A stretch of DNA of 63,996 bases, the filler included, from Catajapyx aquilonaris (lineage: Eukaryota), in assembly GCA_000934665.2 (NCBI GenBank). It is 3 parts of 3 records of this genome, joined end to end, with 100 filler letters (N's around TTAATTAATTAA, not from the genome) between each part and the next. Parts side by side here need not be neighbours in the genome. Positions count along the whole stretch, not along the records: positions 43,394 to 63,996 come from JYFJ02006225.1; 2 more parts are not named here. One strand, given 5' to 3'. Each line of letters begins with the position of its first letter. Position 1 is the stretch's first letter. The notes under the pieces are model-generated. The model was not told where the DNA came from. It saw nothing but the letters and a program-made list of their open reading frames with translations, and ran no database searches. Made by a program: the position numbers and the translations under genes. Below are positions 25,342 through 63,981 of this stretch, one piece after another.

Positions 25342-25859
25342 CTTTGCCAAGGGTCCAGACAGCTGAGGACTGAGTGGAAGGACTTGGAGGAGCAACATGG
25401 ATACGGAGGCCTCTGGGACAATATGGGTGGGGTGGGCTTCAATCCCCCAACCATCAAGAGATCCCTTGCGGGGTGCTGGCGGGGACGACGTGAGGGTTGC
25501 AGTTGGGAAGAAGACCCAGGGGCCTAATCCACGCCTTCTAATCGTTCAGGAGTAGATGCGACAGACGGAGTTAGACCATCACCAGAAAATCTGCATCTAA
25601 TCTTTGCCAAGGGTCCAGACAGCTGAGGACTGAGTGGAAGGACTTGGAGATGCAACATGGATACGGAGGCCTCTGGGACAATATGGGCGGGATGGGCTGC
25701 AATCCCCTAACCATCAAGAGATCCCTTGCGGGGTGCTGGCGGGGACGACGTGAGGATGGGAGTTGGGAAGAAGACCCAGGGGCCTCATCCATGCCTTCTA
25801 CTCGTTCAGGACTAGATGCGACAGACGGAGTTAGACCATGACCATAAAATCTGCATCTA
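25342..25859. repeat. Tandem duplication, 260-bp unit x2, diverged
   Basis: Units start at 25342 and 25602 (CTTTGCCAAGGGTCCAGACAGC...). They differ by scattered substitutions and have no N at the junction. Confidence 0.9.
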
Positions 25860-39129: not shown

Positions 39130-41560
39130 TTACATTATTAAGTGTCTGAGGCTAATGTAATATTGCTCATTTTCATAATCCAGCCAGGCGTCAACAGGAT
39201 GGTAGTCAGCAAGACTTTCTGGGTAAATGACAGACACTAATGTCTTAGGATTGGTTGGAATAATGTGATAGGAATTCAAATATGCATTGAGAGACAAGGT
39301 TTCCCATGAGTGCACCACAAAACACAGCTTGGTTTGATCCTGAATTATTATTTCTTCAAGTTTCGAAAACTGGGGCATTCCAGAGGGATGCTTGGTACCT
39401 CCCATGGTGAAAATAAAACTTCCAATCCTGTACTCTGCACCCATTATAGTAGCCTGCCTGGTAACAAATACTTTGTGGACATGGGGTTTGTCGGAGGACA
39501 AACCCCATGTCCACAAAGTGCTGGCAGGCTGCAGAAGTGCGTAATGGAATGACATTTCCAGAAGTACAGATCATATCTTTTCCAGAATATGTGTCCTTAT
39601 TGCTCCTCCAGTGTGCACATTGAAATAACTGATGACGCCAAGCAAAAGTTTTCGCCACATTTTTAAAATTACAAGTGATGTTGCCCACAGTCTTGAAAAA
39701 TTTGTGCTTAGCTTCATATCTCATGCACCAATACCTTTTCATGGGCCCAAATTTGTTCATGAAATCGGGATAGTGCATGAGGTGATGATGCTTATTGATG
39801 AGATTCGTGTCTGGAAAAAGTTCCCTCATCAGCACGTGATGTTCCAAAATTAATGCATGCAGATATGCCATGAGGCCAGAGGAAATAGTTGGAGCCAAAA
39901 TAATTTCACATATTTGCAACAACAGTGACAGTAAATGTACATGCTCACAATCAGGCACTTGATCGACTATTAAAAATGGCAATGAACGCAACAGAAGCCA
40001 ACACTGCATTGATGTCTGCTTTAAGGAATGATCTGACGATGCTTTTCGAATCATGGCAGTTGAGAAATTTGGTGAAGACTTGTTTTTCCTTTCCACGAAA
40101 CCGTACACAAATGACTTATTGCGATTGTTCAGGAAAAGTGTAGTGAAATATTTTTGCATGACTATGAATTCATGTAACAGAAGTTTTATTTCCATCGCAA
40201 CGATTCCCTCGAATAAGTCATGCATGTCACATGAAAGAACATGAGCTCGTTCAAAGCAGAATCATGTACTACCCCATATTTGGAGATCCTGGTAGGATTG
40301 ATTGAAATTTCTGCAAGTTGTTTCTCATGATTTGATCGACACCTTTGCTCAATACTTTCCAAGCGGAATACAGTTTGAATGTCATTCCTACATATCATGC
40401 AAGCACGGCACAGCATGTTCGCAGCAGGGCTTAAAAAGCCACCTAACAAATGGGCAGTCATTGTATCTGCCGAGACAGATCCAAGTGTCCCCCTAAAATG
40501 TAACGGTTCAGACTCATCATTGGCGTCACTTATGATGATTCCATCACTTTCTAGTGTCTTTAAATCATTCACCAGGGGAGCCAGAATGGCATTAACTCCA
40601 TATTTTTAAACATCTACATAACATAAGGTCACAAGGTGAATGTTTACGAGGGAGGCACTCAAATGCGGAGGAAGATTTTGTAGTTCCATGTACATTGCGC
40701 CCAGTTTGTGAATTGAAGTCTTGGACCCCAAAGGATTCACAACTTCAATATCATCATAGTACAACGGAATCGCTAACGCATTTTCACAAACAGTAAAGAG
40801 GCCATGCTGGTCATGGCTGGTGCCATCTTTGTATGATCGCATAAGCCATCACTTCTTTTCCCCTCAAGAACTGCTTTTCTAGCAGCTGAATTAGACAGTA
40901 TTAATTTCAGTACTTCAAGGAAAGTGTCATTAACTAGAGATGGCAAATGTATGCCCGAATTTACATCTAGCGTCTGTTGAACCCGCTGCCCCAGTACGAT
41001 CTTTCGTGGCTTAATCATAGCCATGTGTTCTGTAAAATAGTTATTTTGTTGCCATATAGTTTGTAAGTTGTTAAAGGGATTATCAACTTCTATGGCTGCT
41101 AATACATCTTGTTTGAAATCTTGGACACTCATAGAACTTCCTGAAGCAACATCTATTGCAGTAGCAACTCTGTCTTTAATAACACTCTGCATGCTTTGCA
41201 ACAGTAAGGAACATGAGGCAACGAAGCAATTCATGGAAGTATGTGTTAGTGACGCCTTTGCTTTCAGATCCAAAATTATTCTGGCCGCTGTATCTGTTAA
41301 ATCTACGGGTGGGTTTGATTCAACCAATGCCCCCGCGGAATCACTTGGACAATCAAAAGTGTCACCATCATCTGAACTGAATCTGAAGTCAGCGGCTGAA
41401 TTTTCAGCACCCGTTGTGACATTTCCACATGATACATTATCTGTTTCTTCAAGGAGCTCCTTGTGTGCTCTTCGTATGTGTCGAGTGAGAGTGAACATCC
41501 ATTTAAATGTCACCCTACATCCTTGCTGACCACAAATAAATGGTCTTTGAGAAAAACTTC
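39130..41560 (-). pseudogene. EnSpm/CACTA-type transposase with N-terminal C2H2 finger, multiple frameshifts
   Basis: Five ORF pieces carry CGQQGCRVTFKWMFTLTRHIRRAH, LYYDDIEVVNPLGSK..HKLGAMY..LQNLP, SADTMTAHLLGGF..CRAC, MHDLFEG and KHHHLMHYP..FGPMKRYWCMRYEAKHKFFK. Confidence 0.85.
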
Positions 41561-43077
41561 GTACGGCATGGATGTCTTAGGTGGGTTACTAATGCCGAGA
41601 CTTTTCCGGGCAAGCTTCTGTTACACACAAAACAAGTTAATGCCATAATTATAATATGGAGAGAAGTAATCAAACACTCATGGAGGTGGGGGGAAATCAG
41701 GGGATGACGTTCATTTAGGAAAAGGTACGGTTACATATAGATCTTGCTGTCAAATGTTTAGTGGTATGGAATATCTTGAAAAGAGAGAAAAAGCAAAACT
41801 GATATAACAGGTCATAACTTACACTAAGTTTTTAATTGTTATATGACTATACATGCACTATAACTAAAGGTAATTTGATTCCTGGGGAGGTCCTGGGGAG
41901 GCAGGGTGTTGGTAGAGGGGGAAAGCTAAGTCTCAATTTTTCACTGCCCCAGGGTCCGATATTAGTGACTCAATTTCGGCAGGATTCTCCTCAATTTATC
42001 CTCGATGGCATGGGGGTTATGACGACTAAATTATTGCAATGCATATAAGGTGCAGAAAAAGTGGTCTATATTGAAAAGGTTCGGCAGTAGAACCTGGTAA
42101 GCGACAACGAAAAGTTGGTCAGAATTATGTTAACCTTTTAAGCTTCATTGTTAGTTTGTTTGTCCCTTATAGAAATCCAGGGGAAGGCCCTTACACCGCC
42201 TTAAATTAGCATATCGGGGGTTACTTTTTCCAAGGAATCTAACGCCGCATGTTTCAGCTTCCGAAAATGTACCTAACTCCCACAACACGCATATTCTGCC
42301 TCAACAATTAGCTGACATCAATTCCAATTTGCATTCCCATGGAAATGCCTCTCTTTTTTTAGCTATTTACCTCCCTGCATCGTACCGCAGGGGGGGAACC
42401 TTTATTTCGTCTTGATGGAACCTTTTTGACGTAGCGCCCGGGCCCACGGGCAGGGTGACTGGGAGGGGATGTGCAAGGTGCAAGTGCAATTCTCAAACGG
42501 TATATTTTGTGAACTCCCCCGGGGTCTGAGGAGATTCCACCCGAAACGAAGCCAGAGACGACCCAACTCTGCACAGGATGAAGGAGGGAACTCCGGGCTG
42601 GGATCGAACCCGACGTTTCCGCAGCGTCACTTTGTCTCCCCTAGGAAATGCCCTTATGCCACAATACCTTGCAAATTAAACCATCTCCGTAAATTCAGCG
42701 CATCCACCAATTTACGCTAATTGGCCACCTCACGTGACTTCGTATCTTATGGTAATTCCGGGGTTTTGTGGGATTTGAAAGTAGACTTCCAGACAAAGTA
42801 AATGCAATTAAATAATACAGTGCTTGCAAAATATTACTCCGCGTTGAAAACAAAATTTCCCATCATACATCATTCTGTATGTATACATTTCTAAAGTTAT
42901 TCAGAGCAAACATATGGAACGAGGTGGGGGTGTGAAGTGGGGTTGGGGGGTCAAGGGGTCAAACATGCAGGGTCTTCCTATTACACATCCAATCAGAATA
43001 TCCGTGTCGACTGTACGCTATAAGACAAGCAGGTAATCTCTCAGATATGTACCCCTATCTTTACCAGACCCCAACAT

Positions 43078-43393: not shown

Positions 43394-43967
43394 CAGGTTT
43401 TGGCGTATCGTGTTGTTGTTTACTTACTACGACGCGATACGCCATAACCTGGCAACAACTGCGCGCCATCTATCAACAAAACAGTCCGCTCCACTTGTGC
43501 CTCTCGCGTGACGCGTCTGAGCGCACCCGTTCCTCGTCTATGAACCCCCTCTAGATGGCGTTTCCGGACACGGTTTCCTATGTCAAAAATGTTTGTCTTG
43601 GTCCCCTCTATCACCCCTAGAAGTTTGTCGGTTGAATTCATTTACACCCTGTATGTCCATTGGGTTTTGTCCACTTCCAATAACCTAGTAAAATATCCCA
43701 AAAGGCCTCACATTCAGCCGTTTTCAAATTCTAGTGATTTGTCCCTCCCCAGGGTATCGCGCAATATGTCTGAAACATGATAATCCTGTTCAACTTTCAA
43801 ATAATAGTCAGAAGAAGCAATAATGGCCTCGAAGAAAGGCTTGGCGTCCACCACGATCTCACGACTTTGTACGGCGGAGTGGACAAGGCTTGGCTCCCAG
43901 ACACTATCTCACAGGGTTTTTCGGCGGAAGACTTGGCGCGTTTTTTACGAGTGCGTGTTTGAGGGGA

Positions 43968-44122
43968 TTCAGTATACTCGACTACATACCAGATTTAGGT
44001 ATCCCATCAGGCATTCTGAAAACTCGCACTGTAAAAGGTGGCAAAACAACACGTTTAATACCTAACCACAGACATAATTAAGAAACAATTTAAAATTAAT
44101 CAAACCTCTCCTGTTAATCCAT
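43968..44122 (-). pseudogene. Fragment of an OBP-like gene (exon 3 plus flanking intron)
   Basis: Exon 44028-43990 encodes CEFSECLMGYLNL with intact AG/GT. The flanks closely match 45307-45464. The upstream donor is mutated and the other exons are absent. Confidence 0.75.
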
Positions 44123-44893: not shown

Positions 44894-45672
44894 TCAGGAA
44901 TATTCGCTGCATTCCTGTAAGAGAAGATTGCATAATTATAGCCATTGCATGTTCATACTGGAATCACCCTTCTGATGATGTACCTCGTGATATTTCACCG
45001 TTGCACAAACTAGTGGTTGCACTAATATCTCGCAGCCGTCTCCTGATTCACCACCTGCTTTGATTTTAATCACTAGTTATTTTGTAAATGGTCTCATTAC
45101 ATGCAGTACAACAAGCAGATTGTGTAATACCCACTCACCACTTTCCTTGCAGTCATTAACGAGTCCAGCAAAATATTCTTTACTTTCCTCATATCCTTCG
45201 CCAAAGAGGAAGTCCGCCACCGCTTTAGGTTTTAAGGTCTCTTCCTCGTCAGTCTAGTGACAATAAACCAGAAGTTAGTCTCATACGTGATGTCAATTGC
45301 ACATTATTCAGTATACTGGATTCAACTGTACATACCAGGTTCAGGTATTCCATCAGGCATTGCGAAAACTCGCACTGTAAAAGTGGGCAGAACAACGCGT
45401 TATCTAACCACAGACATAATTAAGAAACAATTTAAAATTAATCAAACCTCTCCTGTTACTCCATCAGCTTCATTACAATGCTTTGTTGCTTCATTGAAAT
45501 TTTCCGCATTCTGACCAGACGGGGAATCTTCAGGGCGACGGCAATGGGCGGGCTAAATACACATTGGCATTAGTAATCAAGTTTATGTTAAAATATTTTC
45601 AAAAAATAATTTTCATACCTCGTCTTGGGCTGCTGCGAGGGCTGAGAGGAGAAGAATGGCTGCGAAGATCAT
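44894..45672 (-). CDS. Secreted Cys-rich odorant-binding-protein-like protein (copy B), 6 coding exons, 130 aa
   Basis: Exons are 45672-45619, 45552-45460, 45374-45336, 45253-45139, 45054-44984 and 44914-44894. All introns are GT-AG and 66-85 bp. Product: MIFAAILLLSALAAAQDEPAHCRRPEDSPSGQNAENFNEATKHCNEADGCEFSQCLMEYLNLTDEEETLKPKAVADFLFGEGYEESKEYFAGLVNDCKESGGESGDGCEILVQPLVCATVKYHEECSEYS. It has a signal peptide and C-X41-C-X10-C-X8-C spacing. The gene model is strong; the family call is by pattern only. Confidence 0.8.
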
Positions 45673-45891
45673 TGTTGCTTGGTTGTTCCAAACGGTGTGA
45701 AAGCTATACCTGCATTTTCCTGTAGTTAAATAACATTGATTATCTTTCGGTTTATGATTGCAACCCTTTCCTGTGAACTTGTGAAGTGACAGATTTGTCC
45801 AAATCGCTTCCTGTGGCCTGCTTCTGTTGATATCAGTTAATATTATTCACTGTACTGATTAATGAGAATTCTCTGTAGGCATATAATAATA

Positions 45892-46264
45892 CAAGTTGCG
45901 GCACCCGGCGCGGCGTTGCCCGGGAAGAACTGAATGAAGGGAAAACACCTGCCAGTAGCCCCGTCAAAATTTTCACGCACAGAGAGCTGCCATGACAGTT
46001 TTCCCAGCCGTTTTGGACTTGGCAAAAAGTGGACTTTTGCACGTGCCACCTTGTCCATCTGCTCCTGATTAAGCCGCCGGAGAACAATAGCTCCTCTCCG
46101 GCGCTCCCTCCTCCCACCTGCTCACAATCTACTCTAATCCCACCTCAGCTGCAACCCCTCCCGTCCTTCCCACCCGGACCGCAGATGGCAGGCAAATGAC
46201 GGTTGGCAGGCGGACAGACAGACAGAAAGACAGACAGACTCACAAACGGCTTTATTTATATAGA
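45892..46264 (-). mobile_element. Non-autonomous Helitron (373 bp)
   Basis: The minus strand reads A|TCTATATAAATAAAG, then (GTCT)n, then hairpin CCCGGGCAACGCCGCGCCGGGT, ending CTTG|T. It is inserted in an AT dinucleotide with no TSD. Confidence 0.75.
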
Positions 46265-46367
46265 TTAATATATTTAACTTTTATTTTATTTTTAGGCCAT
46301 GCAGTTATATGATGACTAATACAGAAAACCTAATTCGACAAGTGAGACAGATTCGCATCAGGATCTA

Positions 46368-48110
46368 TCAGGTGGATGGAACATGTTGAAAGACACACCA
46401 TTTTACTTCAAGTACAAAGGAAATGAAAGCAAATCCGGTACCGAAGAGAAGCAATTGAAAAGGAGCATTCAACTGTCCCAACTGGAATGACTGCCAGCTG
46501 CCATTGTCATCAAACGGCATCTTGAAATATATGAGGTTGCCCAGGTAGATCCTTATTGACAGAATGACTCGTGACATATGATCCAACAACCCAGAGTCAG
46601 CTGTTATGATCATAGCTCTGTTTACTGACTCATAAATGACCGAGTGTCGATTAACAATCACTCCTGCTATCAAACCAGGGAGGTCACTCTCCACAATGTG
46701 CAGGTCATACGGTAGGGGAAATACGCCTAGAGCCAAAATAGCATTCCAGTAACCAGCGTGGACTAAACAGGCAAATTTTTCTTTCATATCTATGGGCAAG
46801 CACTGTTTGAAAGCTTCATTAAAGGTGGGGTATATCTTAACTTCAGAGGCAATTTGTTTGTTAATTTCATTATCACCACTAATTATAGAAGAGAAGTATG
46901 TGTCTGGTATCATCAGAGATCCACATTCGAACTTCATATCTATTAAATCCTGGAGTGACTCCACGTTTTTTATGGGTTGGGTCACCAAATTTTGTAACAT
47001 ATATGATGAAAAGTAGATGGAGATGATAAGGCAGACATGATAGTAAATACAAAGAATAATCTGGACAGAAAGAGTTATCTTCTTCATGCCCGAACTTTGT
47101 CCCAGAAGTGGGGGCACAACATGGACAATAAATATTTCTATCCAGCTAACACGTTTTTGCTTAGTAAAGGATGCTCCAAAAATGACGGTTGTAATCATCG
47201 TAAGTGCAATAATTAAAATAAATGATGCGACCCAAGTAAATGGAGTGAGCAACAATACCCATGCGGTGTGAGCATTGTTTTTCTTCGTCACAATAAGAAT
47301 CTTGCTAATTTCATGAGGTTGAGCAAATCCGTAGCTCGTTTGACTTATAAGGTAAGAAAAGTGGTTTAAATAGTACTTATCTCCAACAGTAGGATACGTT
47401 TTTTCGTAATAATTTAAATAACTTATCAGAATCTTGTTAAAATATGGGTGAGTGTTGTAGATGCTAATATTTCGTCCATTGCAGTTGACAGTGTGTATCT
47501 CGCGAAAAAGTTTGACTACGGATGTTGCATTGTGTTTGATCGTCACAGAATAATCTCCATTGTTGCAGAAGTAGCAGGGAATGATTGATGTGAAGTAGAT
47601 ATTGCCATTTTGACGTCTCAACTGATCAATTCCAACTCGGTTTGGAACCAGCGCCATTTCTTCTGCAATAATTTCCTGAGTCAATCCCATTGTGAAGTGA
47701 TAGATATTGAAATTGTTCAAACCTCGGCTGTACATCGGCGGTTCGTTAATCAGTTCAAGATATAACAACTTTTGGTGTAATGATATTCCGCCGTTAATGA
47801 CCGTTAAAAAGCACTGGCCTGACATCTGTGTCGCTTCCGTATCATTTTGTATGATAGATGATATGACCAGTGGTGTCTTGACCATTCTTGTCAGATGAGA
47901 GAGTCCATTGTTCAACACTGGTCCATCGTGCAGGATGACTACTGAGCAGTTGACCAACCTTACGTCTGCTTCTTGCATCTTGGATACAACTTCAGCAAAC
48001 AAGATGTCTTCAGAGTCTTTATGCGACACCAGGGTGATGTTAGCACATGCAAATTCAGTTGACATCACCACTAAAAACAACGTTATCCTTAAAGGTACCG
48101 ATGCCATCAT
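46368..48110 (-). CDS. Divergent ionotropic receptor (variant iGluR) IR-1, intronless, 580 aa
   Basis: Signal peptide; LLTPFTW before M1; LLGQS pore loop; ISIYFSSYMLQNL (SYTANL-equivalent); VESLQDL; NRAMIITADSGLL; FQLGQLNAPFQLLLFG..FISFVLE last TM. Confidence 0.88.
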   Translation of the reverse strand: MMASVPLRITLFLVVMSTEFACANITLVSHKDSEDILFAEVVSKMQEADVRLVNCSVVILHDGPVLNNGLSHLTRMVKTPLVISSIIQNDTEATQMSGQCFLTVINGGISLHQKLLYLELINEPPMYSRGLNNFNIYHFTMGLTQEIIAEEMALVPNRVGIDQLRRQNGNIYFTSIIPCYFCNNGDYSVTIKHNATSVVKLFREIHTVNCNGRNISIYNTHPYFNKILISYLNYYEKTYPTVGDKYYLNHFSYLISQTSYGFAQPHEISKILIVTKKNNAHTAWVLLLTPFTWVASFILIIALTMITTVIFGASFTKQKRVSWIEIFIVHVVPPLLGQSSGMKKITLSVQIILCIYYHVCLIISIYFSSYMLQNLVTQPIKNVESLQDLIDMKFECGSLMIPDTYFSSIISGDNEINKQIASEVKIYPTFNEAFKQCLPIDMKEKFACLVHAGYWNAILALGVFPLPYDLHIVESDLPGLIAGVIVNRHSVIYESVNRAMIITADSGLLDHMSRVILSIRIYLGNLIYFKMPFDDNGSWQSFQLGQLNAPFQLLLFGTGFAFISFVLEVKWCVFQHVPST

Positions 48111-48415
48111 GATGTTTTTTTGCCAACTAACTGGTCACAAGTCCTCTGTGGAACTGCAAATCTTTTTTATGGAAAGAACTCCATCATCGATCTGTGTAAT
48201 GCCAATAGTTTCAAGAGTAGGGGCCTATAGCACTTAGAGTAATTCACTTTGCTCCGTTGCTGACCTGCTTAACAATTCCTGTGAGAGTCCTAGCAAATAA
48301 ACCCGTGTCAATCTTTTCAAAGTAATTTTCTATAGTGGTCCATTCATTTTATTGTCGCACTATTTACCTTTCCACCTTCCTTTGTACAGTACAATATAGG
48401 GACTGAATAGTTCTG

Positions 48416-48578
48416 GAGGCGTATACTCATCCCGGTCACTCGCAATCGACAAAGTCGATTGACGTCAAAATGACGTCGGCAATTCTCCTCGCCCTGACCT
48501 GGTCATCATTGGCGACGTCATTTTGATGTCAATCGACTTTGTCGATTGCGATGAGTGACCTGGATGAGTATACGCCTC
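48416..48578. mobile_element. Harbinger-type MITE (163 bp), CTG TSD
   Basis: CTG|GAGGCGTATACTCATCC...GGATGAGTATACGCCTC|CTG, with inverted arms of ~60 bp. Confidence 0.75.
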
Positions 48579-48734
48579 CTGGTCTGTACTGTGAATTAGT
48601 TGCACGTGAATAATTTCATACATTAGTTTATTATTTAAACAGTTAATTATTTTGAATTAAAGGAACTGCTCCAGTTACTTGGACGCGAGGAATGCTGAAT
48701 ATGCTTTTAAATACACACGATGTATTACACTTTG

Positions 48735-49559
48735 CTAATTGCTTACGGTAACAACTTCTATGTACAGTACTTCAAATGCAAAACATATACTGGCAAAACC
48801 AGCACCGACAAGAAGCAACTGCAAAGGCGCCTTCATGTGATCCAATTGGAACTTCCGAGGATTGTTCTCACTTTGGTCAAACACACTCATTTTACCAGAC
48901 ATGAACAGTTGAAGCTTTTGCATATGGGAATTAATCGCAAGCCTTCTTCGGAACATGAGGTCAAACAATAGGTATTTCAGGAAAAAGTTTGTCGATAGAT
49001 GTTACGTTGCTGATGGTTGTAACAGAATAGTTTCCTTCGTTGCAAAAGTAGCATGGAAATGATAGTCGGAAATAGGTCTTGCCATGTTCACGTCTCAGTT
49101 GATCTATTCCAATTCGGTTTGGGACTGACTCCAACTCTTGCTCGATTTTTGTCGGTGTCAATCCTCCATCAATGTGATACACAATGAAGTTCGTTAATCT
49201 TTCAGTCTCTAATGTCTCGTTAATCATCAACTCAAATCTGCCAGCATTAAGCATTGGCCTGACTGCAACAATGGTAAATTTTGCCATCCTATACCATCTT
49301 GCTTGTTTGACCGTATGACTGTAGGAGTTTTTATCATTTTTGGAAGATCTGACAGTCCATTGTTCAATACTGGTTCGTCGTGCAAGATGACCACTGAGCA
49401 GTTGACCAACCTTGCGTCTGCGTCCTGCATCTTGGATACAACTTCAGCAAACAAGTTGTCTTCCGAGTCTTCATGGAACACCATGCTGATGTTTGCATAG
49501 GCAAAGTCAGCCAATATCACCACTAAATACACGGATATACAGGAAGGTACCGATGCCAT
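48735..49559 (-). pseudogene. IR-2 pseudogene (frameshift plus large internal deletion)
   Basis: The N-terminus MASVPSCISVYLVV is paralogous to IR-1. A frameshift lies near 49285. The sequence runs to PCYFC..KLFPEIPIV and then jumps to the last TM (FQLDHMKAPLQLLL). Confidence 0.85.
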
Positions 49560-50025
49560 CTTGATGCTCCTGATGTAAAATGTATGTGTGTTGTCAGTTT
49601 CTGTGCGTCTAACTGGCCAAAGGTCCTTCAAGGAACTGTAAAGCTTTTTATCTTATAAAATAACCATATTGATCAGTAATGTCAATTCCTGGAAGAGTAT
49701 GAAGCAATATATTAGAGTAACTTACTTGTAGCAATCCATTTGATTGCTGCACTATTTACCTTTACACGCCTTTACGCTTCATGACATGCGTACACACCCA
49801 CCCAAACCCACAAAATAGCTATTTCATATTAACCAGAGTCAGTAGCGAAATGAAATGAATGGTTTGGTATGTAATCATTTCGTAATGTAAGGTTGGGTGG
49901 TATGAATTAAATTAATTGAAAATATTTAAATTTGATTTACTCGTATATTCATGAAACATGTTGGATTTTTCTACAATTTGTGTTGATACAGCTGGAACTA
50001 CATGTGAAAATCCGTCTTGAAATTA

Positions 50026-50734
50026 TTACGCAGCACTGCATTCCTGTAAGCAGTAACATGAAAATAGTTTTAATGAAAAATAATATGATTACCCTACTTA
50101 ATTGAAATAGCATTTACCTGTCTCAAAGTCATCCCTGTACACACAATTTGTCTGGAGGCCTTACATTCTAATGGTGCTCCTCCTGCAATGGGTAATTATT
50201 AGTTACTATTCTAACTCCAAATAACAGTTATAACTGACCGGTTTCCGTGCAGTTATCAATGATATTCATCATGAACTGCTTAGTGTCAGTGTGTCCTTTG
50301 GAATAAATGAAGTTAACGAAATCTAATGATTTTATATTTCCGTCCATATCGAGCTGAAATGAACATAAGTAATTATTAATTAGTACAGTATGCTATTTTT
50401 TTGTACTGTTAATTACCATGCCAAGTTTCATGAACTGACACGTTTCCATCTCGCACTGTGAAGACACAATAGGATATTAGCACACTTTGCACATCTAACT
50501 GCGACATAAATCTTACCGCATTATCAGCATGTAGACATGTCAAAATCGCATCAAGCAAGTCGCATTCAGAGGTCTGCGGTATTGAATCAGGGTAGAGGCA
50601 ATGAGCCGGCTAAATTGTAGAAAAGAAATGGTCCACTCTGTACTAATCTTCATCAAATTTTAATGGAATCTACTTACTTCATGTTGGCCAACTGCTAAAG
50701 TTGACATGAGGATCAGTAGAGCAAAAGCGATCAT
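50026..50734 (-). CDS. Secreted Cys-rich odorant-binding-protein-like protein (copy A), 6 coding exons, 128 aa
   Basis: Exons are 50734-50678, 50609-50517, 50455-50417, 50353-50239, 50182-50118 and 50043-50026. Intron phases (0,0,0,1,0) and the 93/39/115-bp exon lengths match copy B. Product: MIAFALLILMSTLAVGQHEPAHCLYPDSIPQTSECDLLDAILTCLHADNACEMETCQFMKLGMLDMDGNIKSLDFVNFIYSKGHTDTKQFMMNIIDNCTETGGAPLECKASRQIVCTGMTLRQECSAA. Confidence 0.8.
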
Positions 50735-50780
50735 TGTTGCTAGTTGTCACACAGGAGAGATATGACTCAAAGAACATGGC

Positions 50781-53005
50781 TTATAGGCTTATCTGAAACC
50801 ACTTCCTCTTCTTGTGGGATTTAATCAGATTAGAGCAGCTGACGTTTGCTAAAGTACTTATTATATGCACCACTTCCCATACGAAACAGGTGATAGCCAA
50901 TCCGGAACCGGCAAGCATCAACTGAAATGGAGCCTTCAACTGATTCAGTTGGAAACGTTGTGGCCCGGGGTCCGGGGTCCAACCATATCCATTGTGAAGT
51001 AGTTGGAAAGAATCATGCAGAAGTAAAGGTACACGAACACTAGTAGTTTGACAGGAGGGGTCATCTTCTTCAGTCCCGGACCTTGTCCCAGGAGAGGAGG
51101 AAAGGTGTCCAGGAGGAGTGTTGTCATCCACTGGGACAATTTAAACCCGGTGCATCTTCTGTCAGAGGCCAACAATATAACAGTGGTGACCATCCCAACA
51201 GTAATCAGCAGGAGAAATGTGACTGTCCACTCAAATGGTATCAGATGCAATGCCCATGCAGTGTGAATTGCACTTCTTTTCGTTATGATCAGCATCTTTC
51301 TAATTTTGTACGGTTGCATGTAAGCTAACTTCTGCATTGGATAAAATTTTATCAACTGCTGATGGCAAAATGAATATTTCTTTCCAATATCTGACTCTGT
51401 GGTTTGGTAATTTAAATATTTTTGGAGCATATTGTTATAATGCCGTAGATAATGATGATTAAGTCAACCAAAGTTAACTTAGCCTCAGGGCGTACTACTA
51501 CGACTTATAGTGAATAGGCAACCTGCAATGGTTCCTATTCCGTACCGTCAGATCAATCTAATCGGTAAAAGAGCTCAGCAGGGAGTAACGAGACATCAAT
51601 ACAGGTTTGCATCAAACACAGGTATTTATTGGACAGACATGATCAACAACTACAGTCGGGTTCTTGAGACGACATCTCACCTAGTCGCACTCCGTCTGCT
51701 TCTGGTAGACATCCTGGCGTCTGCTCGTTGTTGACCGTCCTTCTCGGCGTATAGGCGTCAGGTCAGGGCTCCAGGTCTTCAGTGGTCACTCCTCGTCTAC
51801 CTCGATGGTCCACCGAACGACTCCCCTCCCTAAACGTTCACGTTACTTGGACACTACCAAGTTACTAACTCCCCAAATCCGAATGCCAATTGAATGCCCC
51901 TTCTCTAGTAACCCATCCCCTATTTATGGAACTCAGGCTGGAAGTTAAAGGGCGTGGGAATCCTGAGAGCACCGCCCTCCAGGATTCACATGACTTTAAG
52001 ACAGTCATGTACAGGAAACGTGATCTAGGAATAAGGATGTTTCTTAGCATTTCGGGTTCATAGGGTCCGCTGACTACTCAGAGGAAAACTAACAAGATGA
52101 GGTCATCCTGAATAGTTGGGCAACTGTGTGGTCAGCCTAAAAGGTCATGAATCCACACTGTGTTAGAAAGAATGACTCGCCCAGGATGTGGAGCACTCAT
52201 GCTACCACAAACCCCCTTAAATAGAGTTCAGGTCAGAGCCCTTTCAGCACAACGTTAAGATAACGTATAATTGCCGAAAATGAACTAGGTTTTAGCCCTA
52301 AATGTAACAATATTACTAATCGGTGTGACACAGTTGCAAATGTGAATTTTCCTCCCATTTAAGTTGACAGTCCTGAAATCAGGAAACACTTCTCTGAAGA
52401 ATGTGACGTTGTTTCTGATGCATGGTCACTGAATAGTTTCCATTGTCGCAAAAGTAACAAGGCGAGATCAGTCGAAAGCGAATTTTGCCATTTATGTGTT
52501 CAAACTGGTCGATTCCAACTCGGTTTGTCATTGACTCAAATTCCAACTCGATCGTTTCTTTGGTCATCCCATCTTTCATGTGATGAATATTAAAATTTCT
52601 CATTCCCCGAGGATACTTTAGTCCCTCATAAAACAAGTCGTAATTTAAATTTTGACTTGTGTTTGAATGAGAGTAATGAACAGTCACGAAGCACTGTCCC
52701 GCCCTCTGCATCACCAGTGGATGGTTGTTCCCTCCCCCAATCCGATGCACGCTGGAAGCAATGACAAGAGACGTGTTGACACTTGTTGTCAGTGGTGACA
52801 GTCCAGTTGGCAGCACTGGTTCGTCGTGGAGGATGGCGACGGAGCAGTTGGCCAGCCTGCCATCCGCCTCTTGAATCTTGGTCACTGTTTCGGCGAACAA
52901 TCTTTCTTCCGAGTCCTCATCACTGGGCAGGAGAGTGACCTTTGTGTGGACAACACCAGTGATAAAGATGAGTACAAACGTGGAACTTGCGTATGAGACC
53001 AACAT
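50781..53005 (-). pseudogene. IR-3 pseudogene (solo-LTR insertion, frameshift, ~0.5-kb deletion)
   Basis: The 5' part is nearly identical to IR-4. It is interrupted at 51433-52309, and MDMVG is joined out of frame to GPQRFQLNQLKAPF near 50980. Confidence 0.9.
51433..52309 (-). mobile_element. Solo LTR (877 bp), probably Gypsy-type
   Basis: ATAT|TGTTA...TAACA|ATAT gives a 4-bp TSD. On the minus strand a TATA-like ATAAATA (51927-51921) precedes AATAAA (51630-51625). Removing the insert restores colinearity with the IR paralogues. Confidence 0.85.
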
Positions 53006-53708
53006 CGTTGAACTGTAGTTTAATCTGTACCTTCCTCTGGAAGATCAGACGCGAAAATGGTCAAGAAATGAAACAACGCTGGGTTGAGTGGTGGCTTTCA
53101 CTACGATGACACACTTGTCAACAAATCGATTCTTTCAACACAAGGTCTCCTTTGAAATCCCATGTCTTTCCCACTGACAGCTAAACATATGCTTTCATCT
53201 ATCGCTGATCCATTCAAAACACAATTGTGGTATACAAACCGCAAGACTATTTTTTTCAAACAGCGGAATTTTCAGTTTTTCATCAGTGTCAGAATTATGG
53301 CTAACAATGTCTCTCAACACAATTTAACTATTGGGCCAGCAGACCACTCGGGTAGTTTTAGATAGTCCATCAATTTTTACTGTATACAGTGCTCTTCAGA
53401 GTTGAGACGCGGCAATAAAGGCTGCTGGTGCATTGTGAAAGGTAATGAATAGTTAAAACTTCTTACATTAACATTTTAATGTTTAATGGTCTTTCACATT
53501 GTACAACAATATTCGCATACTTCCCAGCAGACCCATCACGTTCAAAGCCAACATAACAATTTAAGTAATGGTAACCTTTGAAGTTTGAATGTCTTTTATC
53601 GCAGTGTGCAGGTGTGAAAGAATCAATATGCAAAAAGCTCGTGTAGGGAAAAAGATGTTTGCCCAATTGTGACTACGTATTAAAGATTATATGAAAATGC
53701 CCTTGACC

Positions 53709-55481
53709 TCATAACGTTGCACTGTACAACACTTCACATATATAACAAAACACAGATAATACGGCACCAGCAAATAGCAACGTAAAAGGAGTCCTCAACT
53801 GGTTCAGTTGGAAGGATTTTGGTCCATTCTCATCAATCGGACTCACAACCCCTGACTTGAACCACATCATCTGATGTATGTAAGAAACAACTTCCAAATC
53901 CATGCGAAGCATACCACTAAACAGACCCATGTCAACCAATATCAGTACTGCTCTATTTAGAGATTCGTAGATGACTGAGTATTTCCTCATCTCTAGGCCG
54001 ACCATCACGTATGGGAGGTCACTCTCTGACATGTAAAGCTGGTCACGGTGAAGGTCCCTGTCAATGTCAAGGTAATACTTCCAGTATCCGTCTTCTATCA
54101 AACAGGCGTACTTCTGGGTCAGGGCGATGGCTATGCACTGTTTAAGTGACATCAAAAAGAGTGTGCCCCATCGTATTTCCACCTTCGAGGCAATAGTTCT
54201 GTGAATATTGTTGCTAGTAGAATTTCTGATTGAGTCAAAGTATCCTTGTGCAGACAGAGATCCCCACTTGTATTTCATGTCAATCAAGTCCTTCAAAGTG
54301 TCCACATTCCTTGTACGTGTAGTCACAAAGATTCCCACCATATCTGATGTGAAGTAATTGGAAAGAAGCATGCAGAAGTAAAGGTACACGAACACTAGTA
54401 GTTTGACGGGAGGGGTCATCTCCTTCAGTCCCGGACCTTGTCCCAGGAGAGGAGGAAGGGTGTCCAGGAGGAGTGTTTTCATCCACTGGGACAATTTCAC
54501 CCCTGTGCATCTTCTGTCAGAGGACAACAATATAACAGTGGTGACCACCACAACAGAAATCAGCAAGAGAAGTGTGACTGTCCACTCAAATGGCATCAGA
54601 TGCAATGACCATGCGGTGCTAATTTCATTTCTTTTAGTTGTTATTAGAATCTTTCTGATTTCGTAAGGATGGGTGTAAGCTAATCCATGCTGCATTGGAT
54701 AAAATCTTATCAACTGCTGTTGGCAAAATGCATATTTCACTTTAACGTGTGATTCTATAGTTTGGTAATTTAAATATTTCTGAAACGCATCATTTATGGC
54801 TGTGAAGCAGTTGCATATGTGAATTTTTCTTCCTTTGAGATTTACAGGAATCCCCAATTCAGGAAACACTTTCTTGACCGATGGTAAGTTGTGTCTGATG
54901 GTCACTGAATAGTTTCCATTGTAGCAAAAATAACAGGGCGAGATCAGTCGAAAGCGAGTTTTGCCATTTATGCGTTCAAACTGGTCGATCCCAACTCGAT
55001 TTATCATGGACTCCGATTCCCAATCGATCATATCTTTGGTCATCCCGTCTTTCATGTGATAAACATTAAAATTGCGCAGTCCCCGAGGATACTTTAGTGC
55101 CTCATAAAACAAGTCGTAATTCAAATTTTGAGGTGTGTTTGAATCCAAGTAATGAGCAGTCACGAAGCACTGTCCCGCCCTCTGCAGCACCAGTGGATTG
55201 TTGTTCCCTCCCCCAATCCGATACATGCTGGAAGCAATGACAAGAGACGTGTTGACACTAGTTGTCAGTGGTGACAGTCCAGTTGGCAGCACTGGTTCGT
55301 CGTGGAGGATGGCGACGGAGCAGTTGGCCAGCCTGCCATCCGCCTCTCGAATCTTGGTCACTGTTTCGGCGAACAATCTTTCTTCCGAGTCCTCATCACT
55401 GGGCAGGAGAGTGACCTTTGTGTGGACAACACTAGTGATAAAGATGAGTACAAACGTGGAACTTGCGTATGAGACCAACAT
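53709..55481 (-). CDS. Divergent ionotropic receptor IR-4, intronless, 590 aa
   Basis: Signal peptide, PCYFC, LMPFEW, LLGQG, LSNYFTSDM, VDTLKDL, YACL, NRAVLILVDMGLF, FQLNQLRTPF..ICE. Confidence 0.88.
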   Translation of the reverse strand: MLVSYASSTFVLIFITSVVHTKVTLLPSDEDSEERLFAETVTKIREADGRLANCSVAILHDEPVLPTGLSPLTTSVNTSLVIASSMYRIGGGNNNPLVLQRAGQCFVTAHYLDSNTPQNLNYDLFYEALKYPRGLRNFNVYHMKDGMTKDMIDWESESMINRVGIDQFERINGKTRFRLISPCYFCYNGNYSVTIRHNLPSVKKVFPELGIPVNLKGRKIHICNCFTAINDAFQKYLNYQTIESHVKVKYAFCQQQLIRFYPMQHGLAYTHPYEIRKILITTKRNEISTAWSLHLMPFEWTVTLLLLISVVVVTTVILLSSDRRCTGVKLSQWMKTLLLDTLPPLLGQGPGLKEMTPPVKLLVFVYLYFCMLLSNYFTSDMVGIFVTTRTRNVDTLKDLIDMKYKWGSLSAQGYFDSIRNSTSNNIHRTIASKVEIRWGTLFLMSLKQCIAIALTQKYACLIEDGYWKYYLDIDRDLHRDQLYMSESDLPYVMVGLEMRKYSVIYESLNRAVLILVDMGLFSGMLRMDLEVVSYIHQMMWFKSGVVSPIDENGPKSFQLNQLRTPFTLLFAGAVLSVFCYICEVLYSATL

Positions 55482-56580
55482 CGTTGCACTGTAGTTGAAT
55501 CTGTACCATCCTCTGGAAGATCAGACGCGTAAATGGTCAAGAAATGAAGGAACGCTGGGTTGAGTGGTGGCTTTCACTACCACGACACACTTGTCAACAA
55601 ATCGATTCTTTCCCGTTGACAGCTAAACATATGCTTTCAAGTATCGCTGATCCATTCAAAACACAATTGTGGAATACAAATCCGCAAGACTATTTTTTTC
55701 AAACAGCGGAATTTTCAATTTTTCGTCACTGTCAGAATTTTGGCTAACAATGTCTCTCAACACAATTTAACTATTGGGCCAGCAGACCACTCTGGTGGTT
55801 TTAGATAGTCCATCAATTTTTACTGTATACAGTGCTCTTCAGAGTTGAGACGCGGCAATAAAGGTTGCTGGTGCATTGTGAAAGGCAATGAATAGTTAAA
55901 ACTTCTTACATTAACATTTTAATGTTTAATGGTCTTTCACACTGTACAACAAAATTTGCATACTTCAATTCGATGAATTAATATTCGATGGCACATTACC
56001 GGCGATGTTTTCGTTATTTAATGTAGATATATACATTGGGCTTTTTATTTTAAAAGAGAAGGAAAAGTTTACACATGACATTTAACAATAATAATATATA
56101 TCATGCGGTAAATAAACACTGCCGGCATATAGTAAGTCATACCAAGTGAAATTACATAATATACAATAGATTGCCATTTTAGCGTCTATGAAAATTGTAC
56201 AATTATTAAGAGATTTAGCCAGCATACAGGTTAATGGCTTAAGTGATCTAGCTTACAACAGTTTTTTATATATAGGGAACTGGTAGATAAGATTAGATAA
56301 AATACAGGAAGCTTACACCGGATTGCAGGGATAATAATTCGACATTCTAAGCGGCGTACATAATGAGTTTCATATATACTAGGTGATGCCGTTCATCTGT
56401 TAAATATGTGAGGATCTATTTCACAATATATTTAATGACACCGACTAATACAAAAAAAAATCTTCTGTGCGAGTAAAGTTGTTTAAAATGGCCATAATTG
56501 AATACATAGTAATATATCGTATACTGTTCGCAATCACATGAATTGGAGCAACATACTTCTAATGTGAATTATTTTTCCAG

Positions 56581-58408
56581 CTATAATATTTTAAGGTTCC
56601 CTAATCTTAATAATTTTCCCTTACTATAACGACATGACTTTACTTGGTACAGCACTTCACAAACGAAAGAAGTGATAGCAATTCCAGCACCCGCAAAGAG
56701 CAATTGAAAAGGAGCCTTCAACCGACTAATTTGGAAGCTCTGCGGGTTTGTTTCATCAATGGGAGATGGAGCCACTGACTTAAACGACACCATCTGGTGT
56801 ACGTATACATACCTATGAAAGGCCATGTCGATAATTCCCTTAAGCAGTCCCATGTCAACCATTATCAACGTTCCTCTGTTCAGAGACTCGTACGTGACTG
56901 AGTATTTCATCATCACTAGGCCCACCAACTCCTATGGAAGGTCACTCTCCGAAATGTGAAGCTGGTCACGGTGCAGGTCACTGTCGATGTCAAGAAAATA
57001 CTTCCAGTATCCGTCTTCTATCAAACAGGCGTACTTCTGGGCGAGGGTGGTGGCTATGCATTTAATCAATGAAGGGTAAAAATCTTTAAAATCATATAGT
57101 TCTACATGTGACGCAATTTCTCTATGAATCAAGTTGGTACTAGTGTTACGTATTAAATCGTAGTAATACTGAGAAGAGACTGAACCCCATTTGTATTTCA
57201 TGTCCAGCAAGTCCTGCAAAGTGTCCACATTCTTGGCACGTTGGGAAGTCAAGTTTCCAACCATATCCATTGTGAAGTAGTTGGAAAGAAGCAGGCAGAA
57301 ATAAAGGTACACGAAAACTAGTAATTTGACGGGAAGGGTCATCTCCCTCAGTCCCGGACCTTGTCCCAGGAGAGGAGGAAAGGTGTCCAGGAGGAGTGTT
57401 TTCATCCACTGGGACAATTTCACCCCTGTGCATCTTCTGTCAGAGGACAACAATATAACAGTGGTGACCACCACAACAGAAATCAGGAAGAGAAGTGTGA
57501 CTGTCCACTCAAATGGCAACAGATGCAATGACCATGCGGTGTGAATTGCATTTCTCTTAGTTATGATTATAATCTTTATAATTTCGCAAGGGTAGGTGAA
57601 AGCTAGGCCACCCTGCATTGCAGACAATGTAATTAATGCCTGTCCATTAAATGAGTATTTTTCTCGTATATCTGACTTTATGGTTTGGTAATCTTAAATA
57701 TTGCTGAAGGATATGATTAATGGGTGTGAAATATCTCCGTATGTGAATCTTTCTTCCGTTAATGTTGACAGTGCCAACTACTGGAAATACCTTTTTCACG
57801 GAGGTGACGTTGTTCCTGATAGTGACGGAATAGTTTCCATTGTCGCAAAAGTAACAAGGCGAGATCAGACGAAAGATGGTCCCGTCATTTTCTCTCCCAA
57901 ACTGGTCGATCCCAACTCGGTTTATCACACACTCCGATTCCCACTCGATCATACCTTTGGTCATCCCGTCTTTCATGTGATAAACATTCAAATTGCGCAG
58001 TCCCCGAGGATACTTCAGTGCCTCATAAAACAAGTCGTAATTCAAATGTCGACTTGGGTTTGAATCCAAGTAATGCACAGTCACGAAGCACTGTCCCGCC
58101 CTCTGCATCACCAGTGGATAGTTGTTCCCTCCCCCAATCCGATGCATGCTGGAAGCAATGACAAGAGACGTGTTGACACTTGTTGTCAGTGGTGACAGTC
58201 CAGTTGGCAGCACTGGTTCGTCGTGGAGGATGGCGACGGAGCAGTTGGCCAGCCTGCCATCCGCCTCTTGAATCTTGGACACTGTTTCGGCGAATAATCT
58301 TTCTTCCGAGTACTCATCACTGGGCAGGAGACTGACCTTTGCTTGGGCAACACCAGCAGTGATGAAGATGAGTATAAACGTGGCACTTGCTGTGTATAAG
58401 AACACCAT
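56581..58408 (-). pseudogene. IR-5, full length but with a +1 frameshift and a premature stop
   Basis: Close paralogue of IR-7. It has an extra base at ~57693 and an in-frame TAG at 56934-56932 where IR-7 has TAT. Confidence 0.85.
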
Positions 58409-58759
58409 TGCGGTACTGTGGTTGATTATGAACTTTCTTCCTGAATATCGGGTGCGAATATGGTCGAGCAATAAGACATTTTTCCATTGCGTGACTTTCA
58501 ATACGTCGATATGCTTAACTGCATAACGACTATTTTTACACAACAGTTCCTTTCAATAATATCAAGTACCGGTACTTTTCTTATAACAGCTATAGAGACG
58601 ATTTCGACTGTGTCTGATCGATGCAAGACAAAATTGGGAAATACGAAGTCCGCAATGATGTTTCAAATAAAATTCCAGGAACTCCAATCTTGGCCACTGT
58701 CAAGCCAAACAATCGTTCTCCCATTGTCACTTTTCCAATGCTGTGGAAATAACGTTTTT

Positions 58760-60550
58760 TTAGTGCATAGCATGCCGTAATGATTTACTCAACAACACCT
58801 CACATACGAAACAAGTGATAGCAATTCCAGCACCGCCAAACAGCAACTGAAAAGGAGCCTTCAACTGATTCAGTTGGAAGCGTTGTGGTCCGTTTTCATC
58901 ATTCTGACGCTCAACACCTGACTTAATCCACCTCATCTGATTAACGTATGCAGCGGCATCAAAGCTCATGTGGAGCATACCTGTAATTAGTCCCATGTCA
59001 ACCAATAACAATGTGGCTCTGTTCAGAGATTCGTAGATTACTGAATACTGCCTCATAATCAGGCCTACCATCGCATATGGGAGGTCACTCTCGGAAATGT
59101 GCAGCTGGTCACGGTGCAGGTCACTGTCAATGTCAAGGTAGTACTTCCAGAATCCGTCTTCCATTAAACAAGCATACCTCTTGATAAATGTGGTGACTAT
59201 GCATTTTTTGATTGAAGAATAAGTCTCATTGCTCCGAAATATTTCAACATTCGATGCAATTTCCCTATGAATAATGTTGGTAGTATTATTATGTATTGCA
59301 TCGTAGTACCCACGAGGAAATGTCGATCCCCACTTGTATTTTAAATCAATCAAATCCTGCAAAGAGTCCACATTCCTTGTACGTGTCGTCGCAAAGTTTC
59401 CCACCATATCTGATGTGAAGTAATTGGAAAGAAGCATGCAGAAGGAAAGGTACACGAAAACTAGTAGTTTGACAGAAGGGGTCATCTCCTTCAGTTCCAG
59501 ACCTTGTCCCAGGAGAGGAGGAAAGGTGTCCAGAAGGAGTGTTTTCATCCACTGGGACAATTTCACCCCGGTGCATCTTCTGTCAGAGGACAACAATATA
59601 ACCGTGGTGACCATCACAACAACAATCAGCAAGAGAAGTGTGACTGTCCACTCAAATGGCATCAGATGCAATGACCATGCAGTGTGAATTGCATTTCTCT
59701 TAGTTACAATTAGAATCTTTCTAATTTTGTAAGGATGGGTGAAAGCTAAGTCAACGTCCATTCTAGGCATTTCTCGTATTATATGATGCTGGCAAAAGGT
59801 GTATATTTCTTTTATGGGTGATTTTATGGTTTGGTAATTTAAATATTGCTGTAGTATATTATTAATGGGATAGAAATCCTGGCAAATATGAAGTTTTCTT
59901 CCGTTGAAGTTGACAGTGCCCAGTTCAGGAAACACTTTTTTGAGGGATGTCACATTGTCTCTGATGGTGACAGAATAGTTTCCGTTGTCACAAAAGTAAC
60001 AAGGGGAGATGAGTCGAAAGTTTGTCTCGCCATTTATTCTCTCCAACTGGTCGATTCCAACTCTGTTTATCATACACTCCGATTCGATTTTTATAGGTTT
60101 TGTAGTCTCCCCGTCTTTGATGTGATAGAGGTTGAAATTGTGCAATGCTCGAGGATACTGCAGTTTCTCGACAAACAATTCATACTTCACCTTTTGATAT
60201 GTGTTTGAATCCGAGTAATGAACAGTCACGAAGCACTGTCCCGCCCTCTGCATCACCAGTGGATAGTTGTTCCCTCCTCCAATCCGATGCATGCTGGAAG
60301 CAATGACAAGAGACGTGTTGACACTTGTTGTCAGTGGTGACAGTCCAGTTGGCAGCACTGGTTCGTCGTGGAGGATGGCGACGGAGCAGTTGGCCAGCCT
60401 GCCATCCGCCTCTTGAATCTTGGACACTGTTTCGGCGAACAATCTTTCTTCCGAGTCCTCATCAAGGGGCAGGAGAGTGACCTTTGCCTGGGCAACACCA
60501 GCGATAAGGATGAGTACACACGCGGCACTTGCACAGGATAACGACGTCAT
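58760..60550 (-). CDS. Divergent ionotropic receptor IR-6, intronless, 596 aa
   Basis: Same motif order as IR-4, with an uninterrupted ORF. Confidence 0.88.
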   Translation of the reverse strand: MTSLSCASAACVLILIAGVAQAKVTLLPLDEDSEERLFAETVSKIQEADGRLANCSVAILHDEPVLPTGLSPLTTSVNTSLVIASSMHRIGGGNNYPLVMQRAGQCFVTVHYSDSNTYQKVKYELFVEKLQYPRALHNFNLYHIKDGETTKPIKIESECMINRVGIDQLERINGETNFRLISPCYFCDNGNYSVTIRDNVTSLKKVFPELGTVNFNGRKLHICQDFYPINNILQQYLNYQTIKSPIKEIYTFCQHHIIREMPRMDVDLAFTHPYKIRKILIVTKRNAIHTAWSLHLMPFEWTVTLLLLIVVVMVTTVILLSSDRRCTGVKLSQWMKTLLLDTFPPLLGQGLELKEMTPSVKLLVFVYLSFCMLLSNYFTSDMVGNFATTRTRNVDSLQDLIDLKYKWGSTFPRGYYDAIHNNTTNIIHREIASNVEIFRSNETYSSIKKCIVTTFIKRYACLMEDGFWKYYLDIDSDLHRDQLHISESDLPYAMVGLIMRQYSVIYESLNRATLLLVDMGLITGMLHMSFDAAAYVNQMRWIKSGVERQNDENGPQRFQLNQLKAPFQLLFGGAGIAITCFVCEVLLSKSLRHAMH

Positions 60551-61047
60551 TGTGATATATCACACAGAATGGTTTTCCGCCTGCCACACTACAAGACCTG
60601 TCTTCTGCAAATCGAGACGACGCTTTTACGCCGTTCCAGATATATATAGGATGAAGTCCGCAAACTAATTTGAGTAATGGTGCCTTGAATGATTTCATGC
60701 TCTAATTGTGTCGGTTATAGTTGTCAAAGGAAACAACATAGTGTGACAAGCTTTTGTAATATCATTCTTCTAAAAGGCTAAAACCTTCTTTCCAGCGGCA
60801 TAATTTTTGAGCAGAAAAGGAAAAGAACAAAAATTAAGAACAAAATCAAAAAGTTTGGAATTATTCCAAAGTATAAAATTTTGAACTTTTCACAAAATCC
60901 AGGCCAGGCACAAGATGGCAAACCGCGGTGGACTTATCGGAATTATTTGGGGATATTTATTCAAGCACAATTTGTATGGCGGCTTGCGTGGGTGGCAGCC
61001 GCCAGCAGATGGCAGCACATATCCAAGCGTAATATTTTAAGATAATC

Positions 61048-63824: not shown

Positions 63825-63981
63825 TTAATATCCGCACTCCTGTAATGCAATAAAAATATAATGCAATGAACTGCATGATGGACGTCCGACATTTAGTGGA
63901 CACTTCATACCTGTCGAAAAGCCATAGATGCGCACGCAAGTTGTCTGGACACATTGCACTGATCCATTGTCCAGCCACCTC
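63825..63981 (-). CDS. OBP-like protein (copy C), last two exons; 5' part lies beyond the window
   Basis: Exon 63981-63911 (phase 1) encodes GGWTMDQCNVSRQLACASMAFRQ, and exon 63839-63825 encodes ECGY*. These match exons 5-6 of copies A and B in phase and Cys spacing. Confidence 0.75.

Follow-up and report, generated by a model that had tools for sequence, protein, structure and literature searches.

Two genes and the family around them

We analysed a stretch of 63,996 nucleotides (nt) of DNA from Catajapyx aquilonaris (assembly GCA_000934665.2), here called the window, and focus on two genes for putative odorant-binding protein (OBP)-like secreted proteins, gene A (45672-44894) and gene B (50734-50026), both complete and on the minus strand as read from the sequence. 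Six exons make up each gene, separated by five GT-AG introns of 56 to 85 nt in the phases 0, 0, 0, 1, and 0, and the frame is uninterrupted. The six exons, the common intron phases, and the eight aligned cysteines noticed in the first-pass annotation are thereby borne out. The proteins have 134 (gene A) and 128 (gene B) amino acids, 109 to 116 of them after exon 1, and are 31% identical in a pairwise alignment (E = 4e-21). With Ca as the extra N-terminal cysteine, C1 to C6 as the core, and Cb as the extra C-terminal cysteine, the spacing from Ca to Cb reads 21-9-4-41-10-8-8 in gene A and 20-6-4-41-9-7-8 in gene B. A ninth cysteine lies between Ca and C1 in gene B, which also carries the segment LGMLDMDGNI. 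This ninth mature cysteine is unpaired (nine are present in 4 of the 47 complete models described below) and could allow a covalent dimer.

In gene A, exon 1 (45619..45672) contains the start codon and a hydrophobic, signal-peptide-like segment, 18 codons in all and judged by eye; exon 2 (45448..45552) encodes Ca in the motif PAHC, the predicted helix 1 with C1, and the short loop; exon 3 (45336..45374) encodes C2-X4-C3 and helix 3; exon 4 (45139..45253) an acidic hairpin and helices 4 and 5 with C4; exon 5 (44984..45054) C5-X8-C6 in helix 6; and exon 6 (44894..44914) Cb and the stop codon. The minus-strand exons of gene B follow the same plan: the start codon and a signal-peptide-like segment of 19 codons (50678..50734); Ca, the ninth cysteine, C1, and a 6-residue loop (50517..50609); C2-X4-C3 (50417..50455); the hairpin, helices 4 and 5, and C4 (50239..50353); C5-X7-C6 (50118..50182); and Cb with the stop codon (50026..50043).

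Exon 2 of gene A has a weaker alternative donor at 45460, which would give an X5 loop between C1 and C2. With a donor matrix trained on 125 donors of the family (5th percentile, 3.1), donor 45460 scores −3.6 and donor 45448 scores 6.3; the latter also matches the GTTTGA donor and the 73- to 74-nt intron in two of the three closest paralog loci of gene A, on contig C2483. The X5 loop was rejected because donor 45460 is too weak compared to 45448, and the C1-C2 loop of gene A most likely has 9 residues, not 5, so that of the five- or six-residue loop originally annotated, the six residues of gene B hold and the five of gene A do not. The acceptor of exon 5 in gene A is ambiguous and lies at 45054 (C4-C5, X10) or 45042 (X6).

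Searches of the same genome with exon 4 led to tandem clusters, and 493 kb of fetched DNA plus the window were modelled. From 71 exon-4 profile matches of at least 5.5 bits, 62 loci on 17 contigs and the window were obtained, after nine rows had been dropped (six without an AG-GT exon 4, two fused-exon genes of contig C485, and one without a donor). The family has at least 62 loci, with 47 complete models; 62 is a lower bound, since four more loci turned up later. The models were built with bounded spacings, C6-Cb fixed at 8, a hydrophobic first exon as a requirement, and no more than 15 residues after C1 in exon 2. Within these bounds, the C1-C2 loop has 6 to 14 residues in all 47 models and 6 residues in 24. 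The C2-C3 interval is X4 in 36 and X3 in 11 of the 47 (45 and 17 of all 62 loci), C3-C4 is mostly 41 to 42 (42 in 32 models), and C5-C6 ranges from 7 to 11, with X7 in 23 models (as in gene B) and X8 in 16 (as in gene A). All 11 complete X3 members carry X8, that is, the canonical core. Ca-C1 spans 16 to 25 residues and C4-C6 17 to 27; the 8 residues of C6-Cb and the hydrophobic first exon (17 to 25 codons, 47 of 47), which the modelling required, are read directly in gene A and gene B. Exactly eight cysteines are present in the mature part of 43 models, and all 47 are acidic (isoelectric point below 5.5, median net charge −14). A member with a stop-free frame across C2 to C6 was found neither among 44 loci nor in seven further stretches. 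The tree needs at least two to three changes between X3 and X4; its branches are long and it is unrooted, so that neither one origin of X4 nor the direction of the change can be read from it. Judged by their sequences, gene A and gene B belong to a lineage-specific tandem expansion that is large and fast-changing.

Recent members of the family are under strong diversifying selection outside a conserved scaffold. Among 21 recent X4 paralogs, a set that includes gene A and excludes gene B, the ratio of nonsynonymous to synonymous substitution rates (dN/dS) in IQ-TREE is 0.60 for the signal exon and 0.70 for exon 4, compared to 1.6 for exon 2, 1.8 for exon 3, and 1.2 for exons 5 and 6. Our own site-model code reproduces the M0 likelihood of IQ-TREE (−4456.2 versus −4456.4), and model M2a is preferred over M1a with a likelihood ratio test (LRT) statistic of 116.5, placing 30% of the sites at a dN/dS of 3.1. 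In the gap-free core of 68 codons, the LRT is 56.6, whereas the maximum in eight null simulations with exon-wise mosaic trees was 9.6; branch lengths were scaled rather than re-optimised, and the nulls vary the tree per exon and not by conversion within exons. A posterior above 0.95 was reached at 24 of 108 sites, only 2 of which are in exon 4, and the selected sites include several hydrophobic positions in helices 3 and 6. In 12 non-overlapping pairs with exons 2, 3, 5, and 6 pooled, dN was 0.223 compared to a dS of 0.150 and an intron divergence of 0.181 (Fisher test, P = 8e-5 against all synonymous sites and P = 0.002 against introns, the exon classes having been picked after the exon-wise dN/dS was seen); per-pair tests were not significant (P = 0.08 and 0.42). 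The cysteines, the signal peptide, and exon 4 show purifying selection. For comparison, dN/dS is 0.50 to 0.53 in three adjoining receptor genes.

Kinship and comparison with known odorant-binding proteins

Several lines of evidence indirectly support the view that the proteins of gene A and gene B are members of the arthropod OBP superfamily, as their OBP-like label had implied. A profile built from X4 members alone scores the 11 X3 members at 42 to 77 bits, with a maximum of 16.9 in 1099 scored shuffles with fixed cysteines, and it matches three genes of contig C485 at 28 to 32 bits (independent E values from 2e-7 to 1e-6). Of the exons of this C485 type, three of five exceed the cut-off of PF01395 (PBP_GOBP), and the exon-4 profile matches the C485 profile (94.6%, E = 7e-8). 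An AlphaFold model of the C485 exon (predicted local distance difference test score, 79) was compared with known structures by Foldseek, and the 29 matches listed down to rank 33 are all of the OBP fold, with Varroa OBP1 first, although E values are weak. The high ranks include a sand fly contact-pathway inhibitor, D7, and sand fly small salivary OBPs. It is because the X4 profile matches Pfam-positive genes of the same genome, a fragment of which ranks OBP folds first, that kinship is supported, if indirectly. Exon 4 of gene A is modelled as two helices, and four of five segments have an amphipathic period of 95 to 105 degrees.

Direct searches with the family's own exons gave little. PF01395 matched 0 of 43 and 0 of 33 single family exons, which are too short for a match to be expected; its search of the genome gave one match, compared to more than 60 family loci. 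Foldseek with the model of a 38-residue exon returned nothing meaningful, the exon-4 profile found only one spurious match among 50% representatives (a 3083-residue bacterial-type repeat protein), word-based homolog searches found no relatives (one of them was confined to 152 to 2000 residues, a poor length class), and sequence searches of the PDB with family exons returned no OBP. In the ESM Atlas, the match for exon 4 of gene A (0.76) was uninformative, and a PBP_GOBP cluster for a C485 exon (0.80) serves as a lead only.

The C485 genes lie in a cluster of apparently two-domain OBP genes (G000:C485:68500-79300 and G000:C9691; L001, L070-L075), in which the first domain has exons 3 to 5 fused and passes PF01395 and the second is a weak match to the family profile. 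Where exons 3 and 4 join (45240-45253 and 50340-50353, plus the last part of exon 3), the acidic hairpin agrees with an EF-hand loop in positions 3, 5, 6, 8, and 12, not in position 1. The OBP fold has an EF-hand-like class. The family may also resemble the Obp73a lineage.

With classic insect OBPs (PF01395) the family shares the signal peptide, six core cysteines, the C3-C4 and C4-C5 spacing, a phase-0 intron after the signal exon, and the arrangement in tandem arrays; it differs in its C1-C2 interval (6 to 14, being 6 in gene B and 9 in gene A, versus 15 to 68), in its X4 (36 of 47) and X7 (23 of 47), and in two extra terminal cysteines. X3 between C2 and C3 is called universal in reviews (PMC8067015, PMC2808328); X4 is printed for 14 classic moth OBPs, possibly through a counting convention (PMC12110804). 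None of the 47 complete models fits the published classic and Plus-C motifs, and the broadest classic pattern recovers no more than the 11 X3 members, which it does only if Ca is read as C1. The suspicion that standard pattern searches could miss such genes was thus justified.

Whether the family is Plus-C-like, as had also been suggested, depends on the definition. Its extra cysteines, a C3-C4 interval within 39 to 47, a cysteine eight residues after the last one of helix 6, and a large tandem expansion are shared with dipteran Plus-C proteins and the cockroach Plus-C clade, which in the cockroach comprises 71 genes (PMC6175461). Plus-C proteins are recognised by two extra cysteines and a conserved proline (PMC8067015), and the dipteran motif of Zhou, as quoted in PMC2808328, is C-X8-41-C-X3-C-X39-47-C-X17-29-C-X9-C-X8-C-X9-11-C. 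In the family, this motif is found in 0 of 47 models, C6a is absent, and a proline follows the last conserved cysteine in only 1 of 47, so that the label holds in the loose sense of two extra cysteines and not in the dipteran one. Locust Plus-C patterns are given in PMC5623057, and a large expansion, with 191 OBPs, is known from a mayfly (PMC7250882).

The closest match by printed pattern alone is Spre-OBP11 of the moth Spoladea recurvalis (C1-X8-C2-X4-C3-X43-C4-X12-C5-X7-C6-X8-C7-X6-C8; PMC6401106), which has a signal peptide and almost the spacing of the family from C1 to Cb (6-14, 4, 41-42, ~11, 7, and 8). Its authors label it and its lepidopteran relatives Plus-C. In contrast to the family, its eighth cysteine is not N-terminal but lies 6 residues after the seventh, it has 157 residues, and its relatives are 65 to 85% identical across most of the moths and butterflies listed, whereas the family here is expanded and fast-evolving.

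Among the OBP-like proteins of chelicerates, VdesOBP1 (PDB 7NYJ/7NZA) has the bridges 21/141, 41/68, and 111/132 and five helices; helix 2 is missing, and the cavity is wide and open (PMC8222343). The spacings that we computed from these bridge positions (19, 42, 20, and 8) agree with those of the family (16-25, ~42, 17-27, and 8), and VdesOBP1 and the TurtOBPs (PMC8269058) share with it, as we infer for the family, a bridge between the N and C termini, the missing helix 2, and the open cavity. They differ in having six cysteines, without the classic C2-C5 pair that the family keeps among its eight conserved cysteines, a C1-C3 span of 26 residues compared to 11 to 19, and few genes per species. 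Some of the OBP-like proteins of chelicerates fall close to Plus-C (PMC5952958), and a precursor shared by the chelicerate proteins and the insect OBPs has been proposed, not found (PMC8269058). By analogy, the family may be described as the mite OBP scaffold with the insect C2-C5 pair. The small salivary OBPs of sand flies (SP15; PDB 4JD9 and 4OZD; PMC6123390) resemble it in their short C1-C2 (X10) and long C3-C4 (X46) intervals; they lack the extra terminal pair and keep X3, and the family is strongly acidic. The family does not fit an NPC2/ML domain, a beta-sandwich: exon 4 of gene A is modelled as helical and the last cysteine intervals of the family are 7 to 11 and 8, compared to about 39 to 43 for the last interval of the ML signature (PMC6123390).

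The view that X4, X7, and the short loop mark a new subfamily is weakened by these comparisons, since X4 and X7 are one-residue indels in a family that also holds X3 and X8 members, nearly the same spacing is printed for a moth OBP (PMC6401106), and a short loop or missing helix 2 is on record for the small OBPs of sand flies (PMC6123390) and for Varroa OBP1 (PMC8222343). The unusual spacing is real, yet each feature has a printed precedent, and the family is an unusual version of a known kind of protein, not a new kind. A publication on this expansion was not found in the literature searched, in which the main text of PMC6938034 has no mention of OBPs; subscription papers on bristletail and firebrat OBPs may cover related sequences.

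Proposed structure and role

In our model, the core would be held by the bridges C1-C3, C2-C5, and C4-C6 as in classic OBPs, and a Ca-Cb bridge would anchor the N-terminal arm at the end of helix 6, like the C1-C6 bridge in mite OBPs. A C1-C2 linker of 6 to 14 residues is too short for helix 2, which makes five helices with a more open pocket the likely shape. X4 and X7 would be one-residue shifts at helix starts, with the bridges still possible. On balance, we think it probable that gene A and gene B encode small, very acidic secreted carriers of hydrophobic ligands from the OBP superfamily, amplified in tandem in this lineage. As soluble proteins of chemosensory lymph or of secretions of the cuticle, they may carry or buffer hydrophobic ligands, probably larger or non-volatile ones, and their paralogs may be diverging fast in ligand preference alongside co-expanding, intronless ionotropic receptors.

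The same fold could also serve a secreted family outside chemosensation, at work in seminal or spermatophore fluid, in haemolymph, in a gland secretion or glue, or in defence, and binding to proteins or other large molecules. The rapid surface changes would then be the trace of a molecular arms race; we regard this as possible, if clearly the less likely role. It would account for some 30% of mature sites at a dN/dS near 3 while the signal peptide is conserved and introns are as conserved as exons between close paralogs, and non-olfactory proteins of the OBP fold, such as the sand fly contact-pathway inhibitor and D7, rank high in the fold search. Moreover, the spacing twin Spre-OBP11 is expressed mostly outside the antennae (PMC6401106), and a cockroach Plus-C OBP bound 0 of 87 chemicals (PMC6175461). 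On the other hand, OBP expansions beside receptor expansions are known (PMC6175461). Several of the selected sites are hydrophobic and lie in helices 3 and 6, and their uniform acidity sets the 47 models apart from the sand fly proteins that bind polyanions. The SP15 proteins have a basic surface.

Descent from OBPs itself is more secure. A helical, disulfide-rich secreted family with no relation to OBPs, or a calcium binder of EF-hand-like type, with convergent cysteine spacing, would explain why the family's own exons lack a direct Pfam, PDB-sequence, or database match to OBPs, why the exon 3/4 junction is EF-hand-like, and why there are weak matches to EF-hand proteins. We consider it improbable, given that the profile homology to Pfam-positive OBP genes is significant and that there is a continuum with X3 members of the same exon plan; in addition, position 1 of the loop has a hydrophobic residue in place of the canonical Asp (L, V, M, or W in 42 of 47). 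Even smaller is the chance that X4 and the short loop are artefacts of mis-spliced models or decaying copies, for example, through a missed small helix-2 exon. The models rest on sequence, not on spliced reads, gene A has alternatives at two of its splice sites, and relaxed constraint could account for an overall dN/dS near 1. Nevertheless, X4 is read directly in both genes because C2 and C3 share one exon, intron 2 (61 nt in gene B and 73 nt in gene A) is too short for an exon between two introns, the shortest modelled intron being 50 nt, and purifying selection acts on the cysteines, the signal peptide, and exon 4. That gene A and gene B are real genes is confirmed at the level of sequence, where the same exon and phase plan modelled at 47 complete loci, together with purifying selection on the signal peptide and exon 4, excludes chance.

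If the proteins are carriers of the OBP superfamily, as we favour, the supposedly invariant C2-X3-C3 rule is broken across the whole expansion, and motif searches and per-exon Pfam searches consequently undercount OBPs in this genome. The eight-cysteine plan without helix 2 is intermediate between mite OBP-like proteins and classic OBPs and offers a testable handle on OBP origins, and strong selection across many paralogs provides a system in which to ask whether the OBP fold diversifies for ligands or for protein partners. It is imaginable, as a speculation that we hold to be rather unlikely, that the family retains the architecture of the precursor from which both the chelicerate OBP-like proteins and the insect OBPs arose (five helices, an open pocket, and four bridges, with the two patterns united by having the terminal bridge as well as C2-C5), that helix 2 was gained later in classic OBPs, and that the family radiated under diversifying selection on the whole protein as a soluble recognition repertoire paired with intronless ionotropic receptors.

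Neighbourhood of the genes and other observations

Intronless, Lig_chan-like receptor genes in a tandem array are interspersed with gene A and gene B. This array of divergent, ionotropic-receptor-like genes occupies 46368-62868 on the minus strand, with weak Lig_chan matches; it comprises four long open frames (46368-48134, 53709-55520, 58760-60559, and 61048-62868), one frameshifted copy (~56620-58410), and broken copies at ~48765-49544 and ~50868-53000. The window also contains, on the minus strand, a fragment of another family copy (43967..44122), which is 85% identical to gene A at 45306-45464 (the end of exon 2, intron 2, and exon 3) and for which further exons were sought and not found. 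A third copy (63825..63981, minus strand), with exon 5 at 63911-63981 and exon 6 at 63825-63839, is cut by the end of the window; contig G000:C12059 matches this right end at 98% and carries a complete X4 model.

Elsewhere in the window, overlapping long frames on the minus strand (30791-32656 and 39130-41576) resemble decayed DNA transposons, and a faint RAG1 match in 30791-32656 (E = 0.15) suggests a Transib-type element. Local duplications of a few hundred bases appear as repeated translations in the list of open reading frames at 20326-20993, 25252-25861, and 28214-29459.

In the rest of the genome, L064 (G000:C453:68145-71411) has two long frames for a membrane protein that resembles gustatory receptors and matches 7tm_6 weakly; a genome search with 7tm_6 gave two weak matches only, which is insufficient to call odorant receptors absent. 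The mitochondrial order (cox1, a short gap, cox2, atp8, and atp6), together with genes of OBP type, suggests an arthropod and probably a hexapod. L066 (G000:C5905) and L067 (G000:C8523) are of mitochondrial type and comprise one frameshifted cox1 copy, which is likely a nuclear insertion, and one intact-looking cox1-cox2-atp8-atp6 stretch.

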